Assembly: GCA_027717985.1 (NCBI GenBank)
Contig: JALLOO010000003.1
Coordinates: forward strand, 1 to 63,570
DNA length: 63,570 nucleotides
Direction of reading: 5' to 3'
From: Patescibacteria group bacterium AH-259-L05
GTDB taxonomy: Bacteria > Patescibacteriota > Patescibacteriia > UBA2591 > UBA6264
Shown one piece after another: positions 6,374 through 63,570 of this stretch. Numbering within the stretch: the stretch's first letter is position 1; every line of letters begins with the position of its first letter. The position numbers were made by a program, and so were the translations under genes. The notes beneath the pieces were generated by a model. The model did not search any database and was not told the DNA's origin. It saw nothing but the letters and a program-made list of their open reading frames with translations.

Positions 6374-8236
6374 ATGTTCAATTATCATATGAGAGGTGAC
6401 AGGCCGAACAATAGAGCGGCAAGCTTTTTGGTTGTCCTTTTTGTTTTATTATTTATAATTGTTATTGTTGGCATCGTTGGGTTTTTTTATTTATCTTCGC
6501 CTGAAGAAGTAAAGAATAAAGAGGGCGTAACGTTTTGGTTGTACCGTCACCCCACACAGATCACTGGTGATGAAAACACTTTTTTTATTTTTATTAAAAA
6601 TCAAGAGGTGCGTGACATTATGAATGCACAGATAGTGGTGAATTTTCCTGATGGATTTGTTTTAAGCGAAAGTAGACCGCAATGCAACAAAATATTAGCT
6701 AACAGCTGTCAATGGCAGTTTGAACAAATTAAAAAAGGGACATTGCAAGAAATTGAGATTGTTGGGCGGCTATATGGCACGGCAGATCAAATGCAGTTTT
6801 TTACCGGCTCATTACATTTTCAATTGCAAGGATTTACGTCTGAGTTTGAAAAGAATTTTTCTTCTTCGGTTATGATTAATCCTGCGCTTCATCTGAGCTG
6901 GGATATAGATACCAAAGGATCGTTATTTGATCCATTTACTTCTACGCTTACGCTTGAGAATATTACTTCAGAATACGTTGATAAGGCGCGCGTGATACTT
7001 CAATGGCCGTATGATTTTGATCTACGCAGTGCAACTTCTCAGACTGAAAAAGATATTGAGATAGATAAAAATGCGCGCATTCTGGCCTGGGACATTACTG
7101 ATTTAGATTTTTATGATAAAAAAGAGCTGATCATACGAGGAGAGTTTATTGGCGCTGGCAGTGAGGCACTTGAGTTTAGTGCCCAGGCTGGAATGATAAA
7201 AGGCGATGATTTTTTTATTCAAGTTGACAAAATAAAAAAGGTTGAGCTTGAACGGTTTGATTTTGTTCCAGAATTAAAAATTAATAACGTTGATAAGTCT
7301 TTACAAATATATTCATGGGGCGATACACTGCCGGTTCAAATAGGTTATGTAAATAATACGAACGAAGAGATTAAAAACGCGACCCTTCTCCTCGAGATAA
7401 GTGCAAATAAATATATTGACACAAATCGTTTGTATACCTTGGCGTGGTCATATTATAGCGGTCTGTTTATTCAACCATCAAACTCCCCCTATCTTACCGG
7501 CCCTTTGTCCAGCTCTGTTATGAGTACGGGCTGGGATAAGACATTGATTCCTGCATTATCACAAATCCCTATAGGGGGGAGGGGCGTTATTATGTTTGAT
7601 CTGCCCCTAAAGCAATCTCTTGATGCATTAAAAAATAAATACTCTCAAGCAGAATTAAGCATTCGCATTATTGCTACCGGCACCTTTAATCAAAGTTTAA
7701 AGCAATGGAAGGTGCGGAGCAATGAGATTACTATAAAGATCAATACCCATATAGCGTTTGAAGTTGGGACGCGCTATTATGATGATGAGGGAGTAAAAAT
7801 TGGCACAGGACCCTTGCCGCCGGAAGCGCACCAAGAGACCACGTACTGGATTTTTATAAATATCAAAAATACAACCAACAGTATTGAAAATGTATCTGTG
7901 GTTACACGTAAGCCTAAGGATGTACTATGGAAAAATCAGACATATACAACCCATGGTCTGCTTTTATATAATGAAGACACACGCGAGATTAGTTGGCAGA
8001 TTGATGAATTACCGCTTTATGTGGGCGGACCGTATTCATTGGTTGAGGCGCGCGTTGAGGTGGGCGTGGTTCCAACCGCAGATTCTGTTGGTTTATTTTT
8101 GCCATTGACCAAAGAAATTATCTTTCGCGCAAACGATAGATTTACCCAAGATACCATTTCTTCAATTCATCAATTTGTAAGCACTGATTTGAATCAAGTT
8201 CTACAAAAGGATAGTACGAGACAGGAACAAGAGTAA
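6374..8236 (+). CDS. hypothetical large membrane-anchored protein with repeated beta-rich (Ig/CARDB-like?) modules
   Basis: 620 aa with an N-terminal TM segment followed by several roughly 100-aa segments of similar composition. The function is unknown and the fold assignment is a guess. Confidence 0.5.
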   Translation: MFNYHMRGDRPNNRAASFLVVLFVLLFIIVIVGIVGFFYLSSPEEVKNKEGVTFWLYRHPTQITGDENTFFIFIKNQEVRDIMNAQIVVNFPDGFVLSESRPQCNKILANSCQWQFEQIKKGTLQEIEIVGRLYGTADQMQFFTGSLHFQLQGFTSEFEKNFSSSVMINPALHLSWDIDTKGSLFDPFTSTLTLENITSEYVDKARVILQWPYDFDLRSATSQTEKDIEIDKNARILAWDITDLDFYDKKELIIRGEFIGAGSEALEFSAQAGMIKGDDFFIQVDKIKKVELERFDFVPELKINNVDKSLQIYSWGDTLPVQIGYVNNTNEEIKNATLLLEISANKYIDTNRLYTLAWSYYSGLFIQPSNSPYLTGPLSSSVMSTGWDKTLIPALSQIPIGGRGVIMFDLPLKQSLDALKNKYSQAELSIRIIATGTFNQSLKQWKVRSNEITIKINTHIAFEVGTRYYDDEGVKIGTGPLPPEAHQETTYWIFINIKNTTNSIENVSVVTRKPKDVLWKNQTYTTHGLLLYNEDTREISWQIDELPLYVGGPYSLVEARVEVGVVPTADSVGLFLPLTKEIIFRANDRFTQDTISSIHQFVSTDLNQVLQKDSTRQEQE

Positions 8237-22395: not shown

Positions 22396-24225
22396 ATGTA
22401 TGAATTAAAGTCACCATTTAAGCCCTCAGGTGATCAGCCGCAGGCAATTAAAAAACTGGTTGCGGGTATTAAAAAAGGAGATCAATACCAAACACTTTTA
22501 GGAGTGACTGGGTCAGGAAAAACTTTTTGTGTATCAAAGATTATTAGTCAGTTTAACATGCCAGTGTTGGTAATTGCTCCTAATAAAATTTTGGCAGCGC
22601 AATTGTTTCGCGAGTATACAAATTTTTTCCCGAACAATTCAGTAAATTATTTTGTTTCATATTATGATTACTACCAGCCCGAGGCATACCTGCCCATTAC
22701 TGACACATATATTTCAAAAGAAGCAATGATTAATGAAGAAATAGATCGCCTGCGTCACCAAGCTACAAGTGCATTACTTTCCCGGCGTGATGTTATCGTT
22801 GTTGCTTCAGTTTCCTGTATTTATAATCTTGGGGTGCCCTTAAATTATTTACAAGCAGCACTGCATATAGAAAAAAATAAACCAATGACAAGGGGCGATC
22901 TTATACGACAGCTGGTAAAAATACATTTTAAACGAACCAACAGCGATCTCAAACGAGGATATTTTCGCGTACGCGGCGATCGATTTGAACTTATGCCAGC
23001 ATCTGGAGAAATTATTAATTATATTGAAATTAAAGATCAAAATATAACAGCCATCGCCGTACTTGATAGGGTGACCAGAAAAAGAAAACAAACGCTTGAT
23101 GAGCTGGTTATTTTTCCGCCCCAGCATTTTGTCTCTACACAGCCGCAACGAGATGAAGCAATTAAAAGTATCAAAGCTGAGCTTAAAGAACGATTAAACT
23201 ATTTTGAAAAAAAAGGATTATTATTAGAAGCCGAAAGATTAGAGCGAAGGACGCGGTATGACTTAGAAATGATGAAAACTATTGGGTATTGTCATGGTAT
23301 AGAAAATTATTCTCGACATTTATCAGGAAAATTAGCAGGGGAGCCGCCAGACGCCCTACTCTCTTATTTTTTAGGAAAAAATAAGAGAGCTGATTTTCTA
23401 ACAATCATTGACGAGTCGCACATCGCGGTTCCACAAATTAGAGGTATGTATGAGGGAGATCGAGCACGCAAACAAGTATTAATACGATATGGGTGGCGCT
23501 TGCCGTCTGCTTTAGACAATCGGCCATTAAAATTTAATGAATTTTTAGATCGTATTAATTCTGTTATTTTTACCTCAGCCACACCTGGACCATTTGAATT
23601 TAAACATTCATCTGCTGTTGTTGAACAAATTATTCGACCAACAGGGCTTGTTGATCCACCTGTTGAAATCAGGCCTGTATGGGATAAAACAACAAACACA
23701 ACGCAGGCTGATGACATTGTTAAAGAGTTGCAAGGCGTAGTTTCTCATAACCAACGTGCAATTGTGAATACACTTACCAAAAAAATGGCAGAAGATTTTT
23801 CTGATTATCTCAATAAGCAAGGGTTTAAAGTAAATTATATGCATTCAGACACGAAAACGTTAGAGCGTGCAAAGATTTTAACTGATTTTAGGCGTGGCAT
23901 ATTTGATGTTTTAGTTGGGGTTAATTTGCTTCGCGAAGGTTTGGATTTACCCGAGGTAACGCTGGTTGCAATTTTAGATGCGGACAGAGAAGGATTTTTA
24001 CGAAGTGAGTCATCACTAATTCAAACTATGGGGCGATGTGCGCGAAATGTTAAGGGCAAAGTAATTTTATATGGCAGTGAGGTTACGGGTTCTATGAAAC
24101 GAGCGATTGATGAAGTGGAGCGAAGAAGAAAAAAACAATTAGCATATAACAAAAAACATAATATTATACCAAAATCAATTACTAAAAAAGTAGAAACATT
24201 AATAGATATTGAAAATGAAGAATAA
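22396..24225 (+). CDS. uvrB: excinuclease ABC subunit B (short form)
   Basis: PSGDQPQAI..L..G......LLGVTGSGKTF, DESH and helicase motifs. 609 aa, ending shortly after RRRKKQLAYNKKHNIIPKSI. Confidence 0.93.
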   Translation: MYELKSPFKPSGDQPQAIKKLVAGIKKGDQYQTLLGVTGSGKTFCVSKIISQFNMPVLVIAPNKILAAQLFREYTNFFPNNSVNYFVSYYDYYQPEAYLPITDTYISKEAMINEEIDRLRHQATSALLSRRDVIVVASVSCIYNLGVPLNYLQAALHIEKNKPMTRGDLIRQLVKIHFKRTNSDLKRGYFRVRGDRFELMPASGEIINYIEIKDQNITAIAVLDRVTRKRKQTLDELVIFPPQHFVSTQPQRDEAIKSIKAELKERLNYFEKKGLLLEAERLERRTRYDLEMMKTIGYCHGIENYSRHLSGKLAGEPPDALLSYFLGKNKRADFLTIIDESHIAVPQIRGMYEGDRARKQVLIRYGWRLPSALDNRPLKFNEFLDRINSVIFTSATPGPFEFKHSSAVVEQIIRPTGLVDPPVEIRPVWDKTTNTTQADDIVKELQGVVSHNQRAIVNTLTKKMAEDFSDYLNKQGFKVNYMHSDTKTLERAKILTDFRRGIFDVLVGVNLLREGLDLPEVTLVAILDADREGFLRSESSLIQTMGRCARNVKGKVILYGSEVTGSMKRAIDEVERRRKKQLAYNKKHNIIPKSITKKVETLIDIENEE

Positions 24226-26728
24226 AATAATTATCAAAGGTGCAAAAATTCACAATCTTAAGAACATTAATCTTGAGTTGCCTAAAAATAAATTGGTTGT
24301 GTTTACCGGAGTTTCAGGAAGCGGAAAATCATCTTTAGCGTTTGATACAATTTTTGCAGAAGGACAGCGGAGATACATAGAATCACTATCTCCGTATGCA
24401 CGTCAGTTTTTAGGCAAGATGGATCGACCAGACGTTGATGAAATTATTGGACTTTCTCCTGCAATTGCGATTGATCAAAAGGCATTATCACATAATCCAC
24501 GTTCTATTGTAGGGACACTTACAGAAATTTATGACTACTTACGTGTGTTATTTGCTCGTTTAGGCGAAGTGTATTGTCCACAATGTAAGAGTAGAATTGA
24601 AAAATTAACACTTGAAGAAATGGTTGATATTATAGTCTCACGCGCAAAAGAATTAAAGCAAGAAACAGTTACGATTCTTTCGCCAGTGGTGCGTGGGAGA
24701 AAAGGAGAATATCATCAATTGTTATATGATTTTTTAAATCTTGGTTTTAGCCAAGCAAGAGTTGATGGAAAGTTTCGCTCACTTCATGATAGATTAGTTT
24801 TGTCACGATATAAAGTCCATAGCATTGAAATAGTGATAGATAAGGTAATGCCTTCTGATGAAAGTCGTATGTTTGAGGCAGTAGAGGGCGCGCTTCATCA
24901 TAGCAAGGGATTGATAACTGCTGTGTTTAATCAAAAATCTAAAAATTCAGACGAACTTTTGCTTTCATCTCAGTGGAGCTGTCCCAAAGATGGTTTTTCA
25001 TTTGGTGAAATTGAGCCGCGCTTGTTTTCTTTTAATAGTCCGTATGGTGCGTGTGACTCATGTCATGGGTTGGGTAAAACTGATTTATTTTTAAGAACAC
25101 AATGCCCGATGTGTAAGGGCAAGAGATTAAAACCAGAATCATTATCAATTAAGATCAATGATAAAAATATTTATGGAATAACCACACTTACCATTGATGA
25201 GACTTATACATTTTTTACCAAGTATAAGAAAAAGATAACTTCTCGAGATTTTAAAATTGCGCGAAAAGTACTTAATGAAATTATTGATAGATTAGAGTTT
25301 TTACTTTTAGTAGGACTTGATTATTTAAGCCTTAATAGAGAAGCAGAAACATTATCAGGGGGCGAGGCACAACGAATACGCTTGGCTTCGCAGATCGGCT
25401 CACAGCTTTCTGACACGCTATATGTATTAGATGAGCCAACTATTGGTCTTCACGAAAGAGATATTGATCGATTATTATCCACGATTAAATCATTACGTGA
25501 TCAAAATAATACGGTCATTGTTGTTGAGCATGATGAGCGAACGGTTCGTCAATCTGATTATTTAGTTGACTTAGGGCCATTAGCTGGGAAAAGGGGGGGC
25601 AAGGTAGTGGTAAGTGGGAAAATAGATGAACTTTTAAATGGCAGCGCAGATAAAAATTCTTTAACATTAAAATATTTGAAAGGAGACAAAAAAATTTCAT
25701 TGCCTCAAACACGGAGAAAAAAAATCAGAGAAACATTAAAAATATATGGAGCAAAAGCACATAATTTAAAAAGTATAAATGTGGACATTCCTTTGCGAAA
25801 ATTGATTGTTATAACGGGTGTTTCCGGGAGCGGGAAATCAACGCTGCTCTACGATGTGTTGTACAAGAATGTGAATAAAATTAAGGCATGGCTTGGTGAA
25901 GATTTGGATAAGGTAAATAAAATTTTAGGCACTGAATATATTGATAAAGTGATAATGATAAATCAATCACCCATTGGCAGGACTCCCCGATCTAATCCTG
26001 CTACCTACACCGGCATTTTTACACCAGTCAGAGAATTTTATGCCTCGCTTGAGGAGGCGCAGGCACGTGGATATACGTTGAGTCGTTTTTCATTTAATGT
26101 GAGTGGCGGGCGGTGTGAGGCATGTAAAGGTGCAGGGTATAATTTAGTTGAAATGCATTTTCTCCCGCCCGTATTGGTAAAATGTGATATTTGTCATGGA
26201 AAGCGATTTAATCGAGAAACACTCCAGGTGTCCTATAAAGAGAAAAATATTGCTGAGGTATTAACAATGAATGTTGATGAGGCATATGATTTTTTTAAAG
26301 ATCATTATGTAATTACTGATAAGTTAAAAGTCTTAAAAGAAGTGGGGCTTGGATATGTAGAATTAGGTCAGTCTGCAACAACGTTATCAGGAGGCGAGGC
26401 CCAGCGCATTAAACTGGCGCGAGAATTAACCCATCGTTTGGGCAGGCGATCCTTATATTTATTAGATGAGCCAACCGTGGGTCTTCATTATCATGATATT
26501 GAAATGTTATTAAAGGTTTTAAATAGGTTAGTAGAGCGCGGAAATACGGTCATGATAATTGAACATAATATGCATGTAATTAAGTGTGCTGATTACATTA
26601 TTGATTTAGGTCCGGAAGGTGGAGAAAAAGGAGGAGACGTAGTAGCTACGGGGACACCAGAGGAGATAGTACAATATAAAAAATCATATACAGGGCAGCA
26701 TTTAGAAAAATATCTAAAGACCTCTTGA
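24209..26728 (+). CDS. uvrA: excinuclease ABC subunit A
   Basis: Two ABC ATPase modules ([14 protein letters not shown]; [13 protein letters not shown]), LSGGEAQRI twice, and Cys4 zinc modules. The start overlaps the uvrB end. Confidence 0.95.
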
Positions 26729-60179: not shown

Positions 60180-60279
60180 ATTTTATAAATTATATTTGTG
60201 GTGGTGCTTGCTGGAAAAAGTTAGAACCTTTTACCAGCAAAATCCTGATGTTGATTAATTGCCGCCTGTGGGCGGCAAT

Positions 60280-60482
60280 CCCGCCCCGTGTTTCCGCACA
60301 CCTCCGCTCCGCTTCGGCGCACAAAACAGAAAAATTTTCTATACCTTTTTAAATCGCACGCGCCCTAAAAATTTTTTCAATTAAGGAAACGAAAATTTAT
60401 CTGTTTTGCTATTCTGCTCATTCAAGTAAGCGGAGAAAGATAAATATGAGAGAGGCGCAGAATTGCGGAAACACTCCCGCCC
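60280..60482. mobile_element. candidate MITE-like element (11-bp terminal inverted repeats flanked by CCCGCCC direct repeats)
   Basis: CCCGCCC(60280-86)-C-GTGTTTCCGCA(60288-98) ... TGCGGAAACAC(60464-74)-T-CCCGCCC(60476-82). There is an internal near-perfect 18-bp inverted pair CAAAACAGAAAAATTTTC / GAAAATTTATCTGTTTTG. No ORF. Confidence 0.4.
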
Positions 60483-60663
60483 TAAGTCCTGCTTCGCAGG
60501 ACATCAGGCAGGCAAAAATTCATGTTCCCCAGACCCCTTTTTCTTTTTGCCTGCCTGTTTAATGGCGCGTCAAAGAAATTTTGATAGTGAGTTGCGCTTG
60601 TGTCCTACCTTGTTATGCGTCCGCAACACTAGATTTTTTTATAATCTTATATTCCAATTTGGC

Positions 60664-60682
60664 ATATTCTATTATAGAATAT
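60664..60682. promoter_or_regulatory. 19-bp perfect palindrome, candidate C-box operator
   Basis: ATATTCTAT-T-ATAGAATAT, 35 nt upstream of the HTH gene ATG. Confidence 0.45.
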
Positions 60683-60716
60683 ATAATAAAATAATCAAAC
60701 GTAATCTGTGGATAAC

Positions 60717-60938
60717 ATGAAAAAGACTATTTATTCGAAAGAGCATAAATATTTAGTTGAACAACTCAAAAAAGCCCGCAGGGAAGCCGGGCTTGATCAG
60801 AAAAAAGTTGCTCAATTATTAAATACGACACAATCTTATGTTTCTAAAATAGAATCCGGCCAACGTCGGATTGACATTGTTCAGTTAAAAGAACTTGCGA
60901 AAATTTATAAAAAAAATTTAGATTTTTTCATCAAATAA
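60717..60938 (+). CDS. XRE-family HTH protein, likely R-M controller (C) protein
   Basis: 73 aa, LKKARREAGLDQKKVAQLLNTTQSYVSKIESGQRRI. It is the first gene of the R-M cluster. Confidence 0.65.
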   Translation: MKKTIYSKEHKYLVEQLKKARREAGLDQKKVAQLLNTTQSYVSKIESGQRRIDIVQLKELAKIYKKNLDFFIK

Positions 60939-60960: not shown

Positions 60961-61371
60961 ATGCCAGATAATCTTACAAAAGAGCAGAGAAGCCTCTGTA
61001 TGTCCAGAATCAGGAGCAGATGGACTTCTGCTGAAAGACTGCTCCATAATTTTTTAAAGGGGGCGAAAATAAAGCATAAGATGCACCCGAAAATTGAAGG
61101 AAGCCCTGATGCAATTTTATTGGAATATAAAAAAGCGGTTTTTATCCATGGTTGCTTCTGGCATAAATGTCGTTTATGCTATAAAGAGCCGAAGACCAGG
61201 AAAGAATATTGGTTGCCGAAAATAGAAAAGAATGTCAGGAGAGACAGAAAAAATGAGAGAGCGCTCAGGAAGGACGGATGGAGAATTGTCAAGATATGGG
61301 AGCATGAATTAAAGAAGCACAAGAGCAGGCTCTCGGAGTTTTTCAATAAGAAATTGCTTATAAAAAAATAA
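60961..61371 (+). CDS. vsr: very short patch repair endonuclease
   Basis: RSLCMSRIRSRWTSAERLL, GSPD, VFIHGCFWHKC, NVRRDRKN and GWRIVKIWEHE, the Vsr signature. Confidence 0.88.
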   Translation: MPDNLTKEQRSLCMSRIRSRWTSAERLLHNFLKGAKIKHKMHPKIEGSPDAILLEYKKAVFIHGCFWHKCRLCYKEPKTRKEYWLPKIEKNVRRDRKNERALRKDGWRIVKIWEHELKKHKSRLSEFFNKKLLIKK

Positions 61372-62222: not shown

Positions 62223-63320
62223 TCAAGACGCATGGGCGGATTTTCTGTCCATTTTTTTATTATTTTTTCCGTTGGAGATTTTCGGCGGAATTGATTTATA
62301 AGGAACGCCCGCAAAAATTTTTAATACGGCCTCTACAATTATTTTTGCACCTTTCGGTGGCACCGCCATGCCTATTTGTTTTCTCACGCTTTCCTTCGAT
62401 CCCTCAAAGATGAAATCGTCTGGGAATGTCTGTATTCTGGCCCTCTCCCGGTTTGTCAGCGATCTGTTCTCTTCCCAGTGATATCCGTGTGTGCCTCCGC
62501 CCCCGCTTCCTGTAATTGTATATGACGGTTTGTCCGGCTGAAGGCGTCTGTAAATTTGGCTCATTTTTGCGCCCTTAACATTGAGCCTCAGCCTTTCGGG
62601 GATTCCCTCATACCAGGCGTTTTCTCCCGGCGGTATATATTTCAGGCGCTCTACAACAATGTGCGACTGTTTTGTGTATTCATTATTGGTGGCGTTTTTT
62701 GGTATAGGCGGACGTTCAAGCGCCTTCTGCGCCGGAACATGTTTCCGTGGCGTTGTGGGCGCCGGCACTTTAAATTCCATGTTTAAATCTTTTCTAATTC
62801 CTATTATTACTATTCTGTGCCTGCGCTGGGGGACGCCGTAATCTTCAAATTTATAAAGGCTGGTTGTCAGCCGGTAGCCTCTGCCTGCTGATTCCAGGTC
62901 TTCAAGTATTTTCTGAAAAGCCGTTCCTTCATCAGCGCTCTGAAGGCCGCTGACATTTTCCGCCATAAACCATTTCGGATGATGAATATTAATTGCCTTT
63001 ACTCCATAGGTGTACAGCGGTCCGTATCTGCCCTCAAATCCTTTTTGTTTTCCAACGACGCTGAAATCATTGCATGGAAATCCAAAGGTCAATACGTCGA
63101 AAGATGGTACTTTTTTTAGATCTATTTTTTCTACGGGGGCGCATTCAACAGCTGACATATTGTTTCCGTGAATGTTGCGCGCATACGTTCTGCATGAGTC
63201 TTCGTCTATGTCATTGCCCCATACTGACTTGACCCTGAATCTTTTTCCTTTTTTATTAAATACATCGGCAAGAAGCGCGCCGTAGGCCAGACCTCCCGGC
63301 CCGCAGAATAATTCGGCCAT
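62223..63320 (-). CDS. dcm: DNA (cytosine-5)-methyltransferase domain
   Basis: Motif I FCGPGG, IV GFPCNDFS, VI ENV (FMAENVSGL), VIII QRRHRIVIIG, IX RERARIQTFPDDF, X GMAVPP. Confidence 0.9.
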   Translation of the reverse strand: MAELFCGPGGLAYGALLADVFNKKGKRFRVKSVWGNDIDEDSCRTYARNIHGNNMSAVECAPVEKIDLKKVPSFDVLTFGFPCNDFSVVGKQKGFEGRYGPLYTYGVKAINIHHPKWFMAENVSGLQSADEGTAFQKILEDLESAGRGYRLTTSLYKFEDYGVPQRRHRIVIIGIRKDLNMEFKVPAPTTPRKHVPAQKALERPPIPKNATNNEYTKQSHIVVERLKYIPPGENAWYEGIPERLRLNVKGAKMSQIYRRLQPDKPSYTITGSGGGGTHGYHWEENRSLTNRERARIQTFPDDFIFEGSKESVRKQIGMAVPPKGAKIIVEAVLKIFAGVPYKSIPPKISNGKNNKKMDRKSAHAS

Positions 63321-63570
63321 TTTAAAGATAATATTTTTCTCGTTTTCTTTTTCTTCTTTGTTTTCCAGATTTCTGATTATTTTTACGACAATGCCTCTTA
63401 TCTCAATTTCTTTTCTAAAAATAGGGGATAGACTTGGATTTGCCGGTTGCAGTCTAAATCTGTCTTTTTCTTTATAGAGTTTTTTCAGCGTAGCTTCATT
63501 GTCGTCAATTACAGCAACAACGGTGTCTCCGTTGTCTGCTGTTTTTTGGTGTCGTATAACAACTATGTCG
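63321..63570 (-). CDS. LexA-like S24 peptidase C-terminal domain, in the same open frame as the methyltransferase (partial, runs off window)
   Basis: Hand translation of the minus strand gives ...DIVVIRHQKTADNGDTVVAVIDDNEATLKKLYKEKDRFRLQPANPSLSPIFRKEIEIRGIVVKIIRNLENKEEKENEKNIIFK-MAELFCGPGG. There is no stop codon between it and MTase motif I. Confidence 0.7.

Follow-up and report, generated by a model that had tools for sequence, protein, structure and literature searches.

The stretch of DNA analysed here, which is called the window below, is the entire contig JALLOO010000003.1 (63570 bases) of Patescibacteria group bacterium AH-259-L05, and at its very end, on the minus strand, lies a gene in which an S24 peptidase domain of LexA type is fused in frame to a C5 cytosine DNA methyltransferase. 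Genes on the plus strand for a controller (C) protein, a Vsr endonuclease and a restriction endonuclease candidate converge on this gene, and because the C protein, the Vsr and the endonuclease match adjoin the fusion gene, the locus as predicted is a complete type II restriction-modification (R-M) cassette. Since the window ends where the contig ends, the N-terminal part of LexA is missing from it, and the gene's own promoter also lies beyond the edge.

The frame of the methyltransferase (62223-63569) runs for 448 codons and is free of stops up to the last complete codon at the contig edge, just as an earlier sequence-only reading of the window had noticed for the region upstream of the methyltransferase ATG at 63320. 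Residues 1-66 of this partial open reading frame (ORF), encoded at 63372-63569, are DIVVIRHQKTADNGDTVVAVIDDNEATLKKLYKEKDRFRLQPANPSLSPIFRKEIEIRGIVVKIIR; they match the Pfam family Peptidase_S24 (PF00717) with an E-value of 2e-13 over profile positions 53-116 of 116 and the NCBIfam lexA model TIGR00498 over positions 134-202 of 203. The catalytic Lys, K29 within ATLKK, is inside the window, which bears out the LexA C-terminal pattern with the Lys of the dyad that had been recognised by eye. The short linker that had been described in front of FCGPGG is also there, 17 residues rich in K, E and N (NLENKEEKENEKNIIFK), and it leads into the methyltransferase part, a 365-codon ORF opening with MAELFCGPGG at ATG 63320. 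This part matches DNA_methylase (PF00145) with an E-value of 4.7e-76 (ORF residues 82-416, profile positions 1-323 of 324), the NCBIfam dcm model TIGR00675 with 188.8 bits against a cut-off of 100.65, and M.HhaI and M.HaeIII at an E-value of 1e-24, and it carries the C5 motifs FCGPGG, FPCNDFS, AENV, QRRHR and GMAVPP. The domain assignments of the window ORF are far beyond chance, and the methyltransferase half is predicted to be an ordinary enzyme of the Dcm/HhaI type.

The sequence 5' of ATG 63320, gaaaaatattatctttaaaATG, is without a Shine-Dalgarno sequence of the GGAGG type, as stated before. The change of composition reported at the junction is real but modest: the GC content is 0.368 in the LexA part (0.29 at third codon positions, GC3), 0.20 in the linker, 0.46 in the methyltransferase (GC3 0.46) and 0.385 in the whole window, and in the homologous genes the shift between the two halves has the same sign and is smaller. 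At the contig edge the LexA part was hidden by automated annotation, in that the gene call of the collection, P0002 (369 aa), begins at ATT 63330-63332, four codons 5' of the ATG, and misses the fusion.

Regarding the question of whether the fusion is genuine, a search of 5.8 billion protein clusters gave 25 full-length relatives (P0001 and P0003-P0026) of 562-578 aa and 68-92% identity, and LexA_DNA_bind (PF01726), Peptidase_S24 and DNA_methylase are found by Pfam in all 25, so the profile search proposed by the sequence-only reading gave Peptidase_S24 and DNA_methylase on the window ORF and the DNA-binding domain in every full-length homologue. P0001, a protein of 578 aa from an independent sample of the Joint Genome Institute (JGI), is 92% identical across all 448 residues of the window; with TIGR00498 it reaches 183.8 bits over model positions 1-202 of 203, where the cut-off is 110.95, and with TIGR00675 182.6 bits, also above the cut-off, and it matches the PADLOC model MTase_II at an E-value of 1e-115. 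The winged helix, the Ala-Gly site and the Ser (GNSM) which had been expected upstream are visible in P0001, at positions that fall beyond the edge in the window, and in the homologues, but extension of the window contig itself yielded no match, as 32- and 49-nt strings from its end have no exact match in metagenome contigs. Throughout the 25-member alignment the Ala-Gly pair, within the cleavage-site motif G-T-I-[AT]-A-G-Q-P-I-E-A, is invariant, and so are the Ser of GNSM, the Lys of ATLKK, the winged helix and the C5 motifs FCGPGG, FPCNDFS, ENV, QxRHR and GMAVPP; the linker is the least conserved stretch. Judged by its sequence, the LexA half agrees with its family on every count. An AlphaFold2 model of P0001 from a 25-sequence alignment, with a mean predicted local distance difference test score (pLDDT) of 59, was set aside.

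Between the window and L004 (920-2266), the contig of P0001, the frame is intact. The LexA part has 6 synonymous differences and 1 non-synonymous one, the linker has 1 and 4, and the methyltransferase 81 and 29, as is characteristic of a single translated ORF whose two domains are under selection and whose linker is free. This bears directly on the idea that an R-M island had inserted into the 3' end of lexA, which the sequence-only reading offered as one of two choices, and on the related one of a misassembly, either with a non-functional or neutral read-through as the result. The contig end within the LexA domain, which leaves the gene incomplete in the window, and the GC3 of 0.29 against 0.46 in the two halves would suit such an accident; nevertheless the identical junction recurs in a protein of 92% identity from an independent sample, fusions of this kind occur in the 25 clusters and in more than 70 species of GTDB, the catalytic residues are invariant in both halves and in each half non-synonymous changes are far fewer than synonymous ones, so the accidental chimera is effectively refuted and its chance of being right is negligible. 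It might also be supposed that two proteins come from one ORF, the methyltransferase being made mainly from ATG 63320 and the LexA part being a separate or irrelevant product, for which speak an in-frame ATG placed right where the domains meet in the window, P0001 and P0025 and the 369-aa product called by the pipeline. However, besides the missing Shine-Dalgarno sequence, the boundary residue is Leu in 21 of the 25 homologues (Met in P0001 and P0025, Ile in P0024) and its codon is CTT in L002, in-frame ATG, GTG and TTG are missing throughout the linker in 16 of 28 C5-class fusions, and no member has a stop between the domains, which makes separate translation highly improbable. Owing to the conservation, the synonymous excess, the boundary Met that is mostly Leu and the linkers without starts, both of these explanations are rejected; the fusion is real, with purifying selection acting on both halves, in accord with the other choice of the sequence-only reading, a genuine repressor-methyltransferase fusion. 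We regard the structural and comparative claims as practically certain.

At the DNA level the window and L004 are 96% identical in the LexA part and 88.7% in the methyltransferase part. Together with the GC3 jump from 0.29 to 0.46, this difference would be in keeping with mosaic recombination in which the LexA module is shared and what lies behind it is exchanged; if cassettes or strains have such a conserved module in common, that might be why the assembly broke just at this place.

The architecture is by no means confined to the window. When each GTDB species, represented by one genome, was scanned with the LexA part, 593 relatives came up; the analysis covered the best 80 of them, which come nearly all from metagenome-assembled genomes (MAGs) of Patescibacteria, a few other taxonomic labels being unverified. 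Among these 80 loci both LexA domains are always present, A85, G86 and the catalytic Ser and Lys are invariant in all sequences, and the ORF through the LexA match has 448-763 aa in 71, runs off the contig end in 4 and is a stand-alone gene of about 200 aa in 5. The fused domain is N6_N4_Mtase in 38 loci, C5 DNA_methylase in 26, D12 (Dam-type) in 10 and Eco57I/N6_Mtase in 2. In a phmmer search over 1.84 billion representatives the approximately 65 closest relatives, at 45-64% identity, are mostly proteins of 270-890 aa in which LexA is N-terminal, and below about 45% identity canonical 200-aa LexAs predominate; the ten longest relatives are all LexA plus methyltransferase, with TaqI_C/Eco57I gamma-type enzymes among them. 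The C5 fusion seen in the first reading is thus real, but its scope was underestimated, as the arrangement is a general one of Patescibacteria with four methyltransferase families.

In every class a partner ORF converges on the methyltransferase gene with a gap of -3 to +11 nt, and each class has its own partner at the 3' end: an MvaI/BcnI endonuclease (E-value 3e-44) abuts 20 of 22 loci of a 621-aa class, a Bsp6I endonuclease (2e-17) abuts 11 C5 loci, and other families stand elsewhere. Split versions also exist. L087/L088 has lexA (203 aa), vsr and a methyltransferase gene, with a convergent endonuclease, and this methyltransferase is 74% identical to that of the window; L054 has lexA, a gap of 23 nt, an N6_N4 methyltransferase and then a TdeIII endonuclease (7e-59). 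The methyltransferase family of the window is found with other regulators as well, namely an HTH_17 gene in L085 and a fused MerR-type helix-turn-helix (HTH) in P0094 (426 aa), which is the picture to be expected if the regulator, be it N-terminal or upstream, can be exchanged. The same family also occurs with a C-terminal Vsr fusion (P0054, 502 aa; P0109, 493 aa).

When the LexA domains were placed in a neighbour-joining tree, four stand-alone LexAs, whose genes have housekeeping neighbours (Fur, AhpC), grouped in a clade of their own, and the R-M-associated domains fell into one large clade with the methyltransferase classes mixed together; therefore methyltransferase/endonuclease cassettes seem to have been swapped behind a common LexA module. 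Taken together, these comparisons reveal what is, from the sequences, a large Patescibacteria clade of R-M-associated LexAs, fused to or occasionally encoded directly upstream of methyltransferases of four unrelated families. L043, L052 and L053 carry near-identical LexA-N4/N6 methyltransferase genes with about 110 nt of near-identical upstream sequence, and their MAGs are labelled as different candidate phyla (Parcubacteria group, Levybacteria), which points to recent horizontal transfer. A scan of viral contigs gave only two close relatives, for which reason an origin from a phage repressor is not favoured.

The upstream regions of 83 LexA-methyltransferase genes were compared with 1533 control windows and found to have a common promoter layout, in which the 9-mer TGTGGATAA is followed by a direct repeat with an 11-bp period that abuts a TATAAT box. 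The repeat, (T/G)TTC-N7-(T/G)TTC, overlaps the -35/-10 region; it takes the form TTTCGGT-N4-TTTCGGT, with the variants TTTCTAT, TTTCGAT and TTCAGT, and is literally GTTC-N7-GTTC in some loci, which is an established form of the LexA box known from Alphaproteobacteria (PMC8565304). It is present in 62 of the 83 promoters against 61 of the 1533 control windows. Under a strict definition, about 860 kb contain 60 matches to it, of which 53 lie at the LexA-methyltransferase genes' own promoters and most of the remaining ones in those same intergenic regions on the other strand, and the canonical stand-alone lexA genes have the same direct repeat. In seven loci of the window subfamily the promoter reads TGTGGATAA[C/G/A]-N11-15-TTCAGT-N5-TTCGGT-ATAAT, and the predicted copy belonging to the window's gene must lie just beyond the contig end.

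What is more, the repeat follows the protein. A recognition helix S-T-x-H-Q/E pairs with TTC(G/A)G or TTCGC half-sites in 48 loci and S-T-A-H-Y/H/F with TTC(T/G)A half-sites in 33, that is 48/0/0/33 without exceptions and across methyltransferase classes, in a count that ignores phylogeny; in sister sequences such as L008 and L040/L054 helix and half-site switch together. Because the half-site covaries perfectly with the recognition helix, there is good evidence for the direct repeat as the operator to which the fused LexA binds. Matches to the operator pattern in the window are no more numerous than chance predicts, uvrA (24209-26728) included; this gene overlaps the ORF before it and is without a promoter region of its own. 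The regions 5' of the convergent endonuclease genes have neither operator nor DnaA box. A match to a RecA pattern in L058 proved spurious, there being no ORF at that place.

The 9-mer TGTGGATAA is the reverse complement of TTATCCACA. In L012 (10070-10212) four DnaA boxes with at most one mismatch lie within 140 bp beside a dnaA-like ORF, and because of this cluster the 9-mer is plausibly the DnaA box of these bacteria. It stands 0-40 nt 5' of the LexA operator, in either orientation, in 42 of the 83 promoters against 5 of the 1533 control windows, and neither the promoters of canonical stand-alone lexA genes nor the homologous cassette without LexA in L085 has it. This distribution suggests a possible input of DnaA, or of replication, into methyltransferase expression. 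In addition, (A/T)GTCAA is found 3-12 nt before the ATG, without a GGAGG Shine-Dalgarno sequence, in L002, L004-L012, L020-L023, L087 and others, and might be a signal for translation or a further binding site.

The features of the window are collected in Table 1. The 279-aa endonuclease candidate has a conserved PQD...GIKSSK motif and was recognised by PADLOC alone, as Pfam and NCBIfam gave no match and a profile of its family had no significant match among PDB sequences. Its family also abuts the fusion gene in L001, L002, L038, L077, L116 and L117, and Vsr adjoins C5-class fusions in L012, L020, L030, L067 and L117 too. A two-gene core of fusion gene and abutting convergent partner (277-318 aa) recurs in L001, L002/L003, L114/L115, L116 and L117 amid varying housekeeping genes, with tRNA genes alongside in two of them, and therefore behaves as a mobile cassette. 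Directly 5' of the convergent endonuclease gene, tRNA-like sequences are seen in L115 (about 6800-6930) and L116 (about 7560-7770), which suggests insertion at tRNA-associated hot spots. Only about 30 nt separate a host gene from the endonuclease gene that follows it in L001 and L002, and this endonuclease gene has no visible promoter of its own.

In the window, about 520 bp of non-coding DNA (60180-60700), with GC content up to 0.455 in parts, separate a thioredoxin/CcdA-like cluster from the cassette and are probably the island boundary; this DNA contains a number of short inverted repeats rich in GC and matches nothing in Rfam. The candidate C-box contains the TTCTAT heptamer which is the LexA half-site in other subfamilies, here as an inverted and not a direct repeat, and this may be coincidence. 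As for the host, the proteins nearest to the UvrA of the window (24209-26725) share 74% identity with it and belong to the Patescibacteria groups Pacebacteria, Wolfebacteria, Nealsonbacteria and Minisyncoccia.

Table 1. Features of the predicted restriction-modification cassette at the end of the window
Feature	Position	Strand	Basis and remarks
LexA-C5 methyltransferase fusion ORF, 5'-truncated	62223..63569	-	448 codons plus stop, contig ends within S24 domain; open frame; Pfam and NCBIfam for both domains
LexA S24 autoprotease/dimerisation domain, C-terminal half, with catalytic Lys (ATLKK)	63372..63569	-	PF00717 and TIGR00498
Inter-domain linker, 17 aa, K/E/N-rich	63321..63371	-	Low complexity; NLENKEEKENEKNIIFK
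C5 cytosine DNA methyltransferase domain	62226..63320	-	Stop codon 62223-62225; PF00145, TIGR00675, PADLOC (for P0001)
Type II restriction endonuclease candidate, 279 aa	61377..62216	+	Convergent with fusion gene, 6 nt between stop codons; PADLOC REase_II PDLC03411, E-value 1.5e-17
Vsr very-short-patch T:G mismatch endonuclease, companion of C5 methyltransferases	60961..61371	+	PF03852, E-value 1.9e-19; TIGR00632, 118.3 bits (cut-off 97.85)
Controller (C) protein, Xre-type HTH, first gene of C-vsr-R (R, endonuclease) operon	60717..60938	+	PF01381, E-value 1.5e-14; PADLOC Control_protein, E-value 1.5e-6
Promoter-like site TTGGCA-17-TATAAT	60659..60687	+	Consensus scan, 11 of 12 positions; putative function
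Palindrome ATTCTAT-T-ATAGAAT, candidate C-box	60666-60680	+	In promoter spacer; putative function
DnaA-box sequence TGTGGATAA(C)	60707..60715	+	Abuts ATG of C gene; 2 matches in window, 0.7 expected
Putative terminator-like hairpin with T-run, for C-vsr-R transcript	62232..62252	+	Within non-conserved 3' tail of fusion ORF; consensus scan

In view of these data, we propose that a single polypeptide, made of a complete LexA, a short flexible linker and a C5 methyltransferase, would dimerise through its S24 domain, bind the direct-repeat operator and repress its own gene, so that the dose of repressor would be the dose of methyltransferase. In the event of DNA breaks, whether due to lagging methylation and the self-restriction that follows, to repair synthesis or to external damage, RecA filaments would stimulate cleavage at Ala-Gly, the DNA-binding domain would be detached, the promoter would be de-repressed and the output of methyltransferase would rise. 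The outcome would be a damage-sensing homeostat for modification, answering self-restriction or the unmodified DNA generated by repair, an idea that comes from the report that unbalanced restriction-modification itself induces the SOS response (PMC3874152); the DnaA box 5' of the promoters might add an input from replication. The coupling of self-cleavage to DNA damage, which had already been raised in the first reading, is plausible, and we consider the full mechanism, in which a dual-function methyltransferase-repressor has a cleavable LexA and RecA-sensed damage de-represses modification, to be on balance probable.

Several points weigh against this scheme. Cleavage, RecA dependence, operator binding and the activity or stability of the cleaved S24-methyltransferase fragment are all things that we infer; the N-terminus and promoter of the window's own gene are beyond the contig end; the perfect covariation was counted without regard to phylogeny; and no recA was seen in the window and the locus DNA examined. 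The terminator-like hairpins between the convergent genes of the window argue against strong transcriptional interference in the predicted circuit, and interference by convergent transcription is given little weight as a part of it. At the same time, the cleavage fragments of E. coli LexA are degraded, and therefore cleavage could lower, not raise, methyltransferase activity.

This last point is the starting position for an opposite function, namely a damage-triggered suicide, in which cleavage destabilises or inactivates the methyltransferase and, under heavy DNA damage or when a phage activates RecA, the endonuclease kills the cell in an abortive-infection-like manner. LexA fragments being protease substrates in E. 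coli, and R-M systems behaving as toxin-antitoxin modules (PMC3874152), it has some ground; however, cleavage would also de-repress synthesis, the methyltransferase domain would remain on a folded S24 domain with nothing pointing to instability, and the DnaA box with a homeostatic promoter architecture suits maintenance better than killing, so that we hold suicide to be quite unlikely. A simpler function, which we rate as unlikely, is that of a constitutive autorepressor, where the LexA module gives DNA binding and dimerisation in the manner of SsoII and self-cleavage has no physiological relevance. Fused repressor domains that answer no signal are indeed known on C5 methyltransferases (PMC12707154), and other members of the window's methyltransferase family have plain HTH regulators; nevertheless the invariance of Ala-Gly, Ser and Lys in 80 of 80 GTDB sequences and 25 of 25 members of the subfamily is hard to explain without selection for cleavage. 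Lastly, the fusion may be considered the general SOS repressor of the cell, to which the methyltransferase is attached as a passenger with no specific gain, as fused and canonical LexA genes have the operator type in common and the small genomes of Patescibacteria might keep just a single LexA. Yet the fusion-type clade is separate from the canonical stand-alone LexAs among housekeeping genes, the cassette travels with its endonuclease through varying genomic contexts, and in about 860 kb the operator is found essentially only at the genes' own promoters and in the window at chance level, uvrA included; such a role is thus very unlikely. Returning to the damage-sensing homeostat, a more general proposal, for and against which we see even chances, is that Patescibacteria possess a dedicated LexA clade as a built-in controller of type II R-M systems, as a rule at the N-terminus of a C5, N4/N6 beta-type, Dam-type or Eco57I/TaqI gamma-type methyltransferase and at times in a gene directly before it, through which RecA-sensed damage, and possibly DnaA, would directly set modification, and which would be an undescribed regulatory class and a type II analogue of restriction alleviation.

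R-M systems must keep methylation ahead of restriction, and the controls known so far, i.e. C proteins, short HTHs on methyltransferases, promoter methylation and antisense RNA, sense only the products of the system itself. If the proposal is true, a cleavable-LexA methyltransferase adds a direct input of DNA damage, including damage by the system's own endonuclease, and it would show how minimal-genome organisms come to have selfish or defence modules wired to their SOS response. The recurrence on four methyltransferase families with matching operators gives a clean and testable model, and the covariation of helix and half-site may serve as a natural specificity code for winged helices of LexA type. 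On the practical side, annotation pipelines label these proteins as methyltransferases only, or miss the fusion at contig ends, and such systems are barriers to the genetic manipulation of Patescibacteria. The SOS network of this group was reportedly treated by Sanchez-Osuna, Barbe and Erill in 2017 (Environ Microbiol 19:3465), whose paper may already define the direct-repeat box. No description of a LexA-methyltransferase fusion was found in the full-text literature searched, in line with the first reading, which was aware of no described S24 autoprotease fusion; the word LexA is absent from a 2025 review of restriction-modification (PMC12707154), and a 2013 review (PMC3874152) mentions LexA only for toxin-antitoxin systems.

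Among known systems, canonical LexA (TIGR00498) has the same architecture over residues 1-198, with the cleavage site, the dyad and an operator in its own promoter, whereas the fusions add a C-terminal DNA methyltransferase of 310-690 aa, form a separate clade, travel with a restriction endonuclease in varying contexts and have the operator only at their own promoter as far as seen. C-protein systems such as PvuII and Esp1396I likewise use a small dedicated transcription factor to time and balance methyltransferase and endonuclease, and the window has a C gene before vsr and the endonuclease gene; but C proteins act on the promoter of the endonuclease (and C) gene and sense their own concentration only, while the LexA module sits on the methyltransferase and could sense damage, and in the window the two coexist. 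Restriction alleviation triggered by damage exists for type I systems, where degradation of HsdR by ClpXP likewise shields the chromosome from self-restriction at unmodified sites (PMC12707154); there restriction is lowered by proteolysis of an endonuclease subunit, whereas in the proposed scheme modification would be raised by autoproteolysis of a fused repressor. The LexA-repressed toxin-antitoxin modules symE, tisB and dinJ-yafQ are likewise addiction-type modules in the SOS regulon (PMC3874152), with the difference that the LexA of those modules is the host's and works in trans, on the toxin side, and here LexA is within the polypeptide of the "antitoxin", the methyltransferase. The closest functional class is that of the dual-function methyltransferase-repressors SsoII, Ecl18kI, EcoRII and MspI, which follow the logic that is proposed for the fusion, a repressor dose equal to the methyltransferase dose (PMC12707154). 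Compared with the M.SsoII class, the N-terminal module is assigned to LexA by Pfam and NCBIfam and is not a short HTH of about 70 aa; it is a full LexA of 200 aa with intact Ala-Gly, Ser and Lys, and therefore potentially cleavable upon a signal, and its operator is an 11-bp direct repeat. It is also found on four unrelated methyltransferase families and not on C5 enzymes alone, and what is new with respect to this class, on the evidence of the sequences, is a complete and apparently cleavable LexA on all four.

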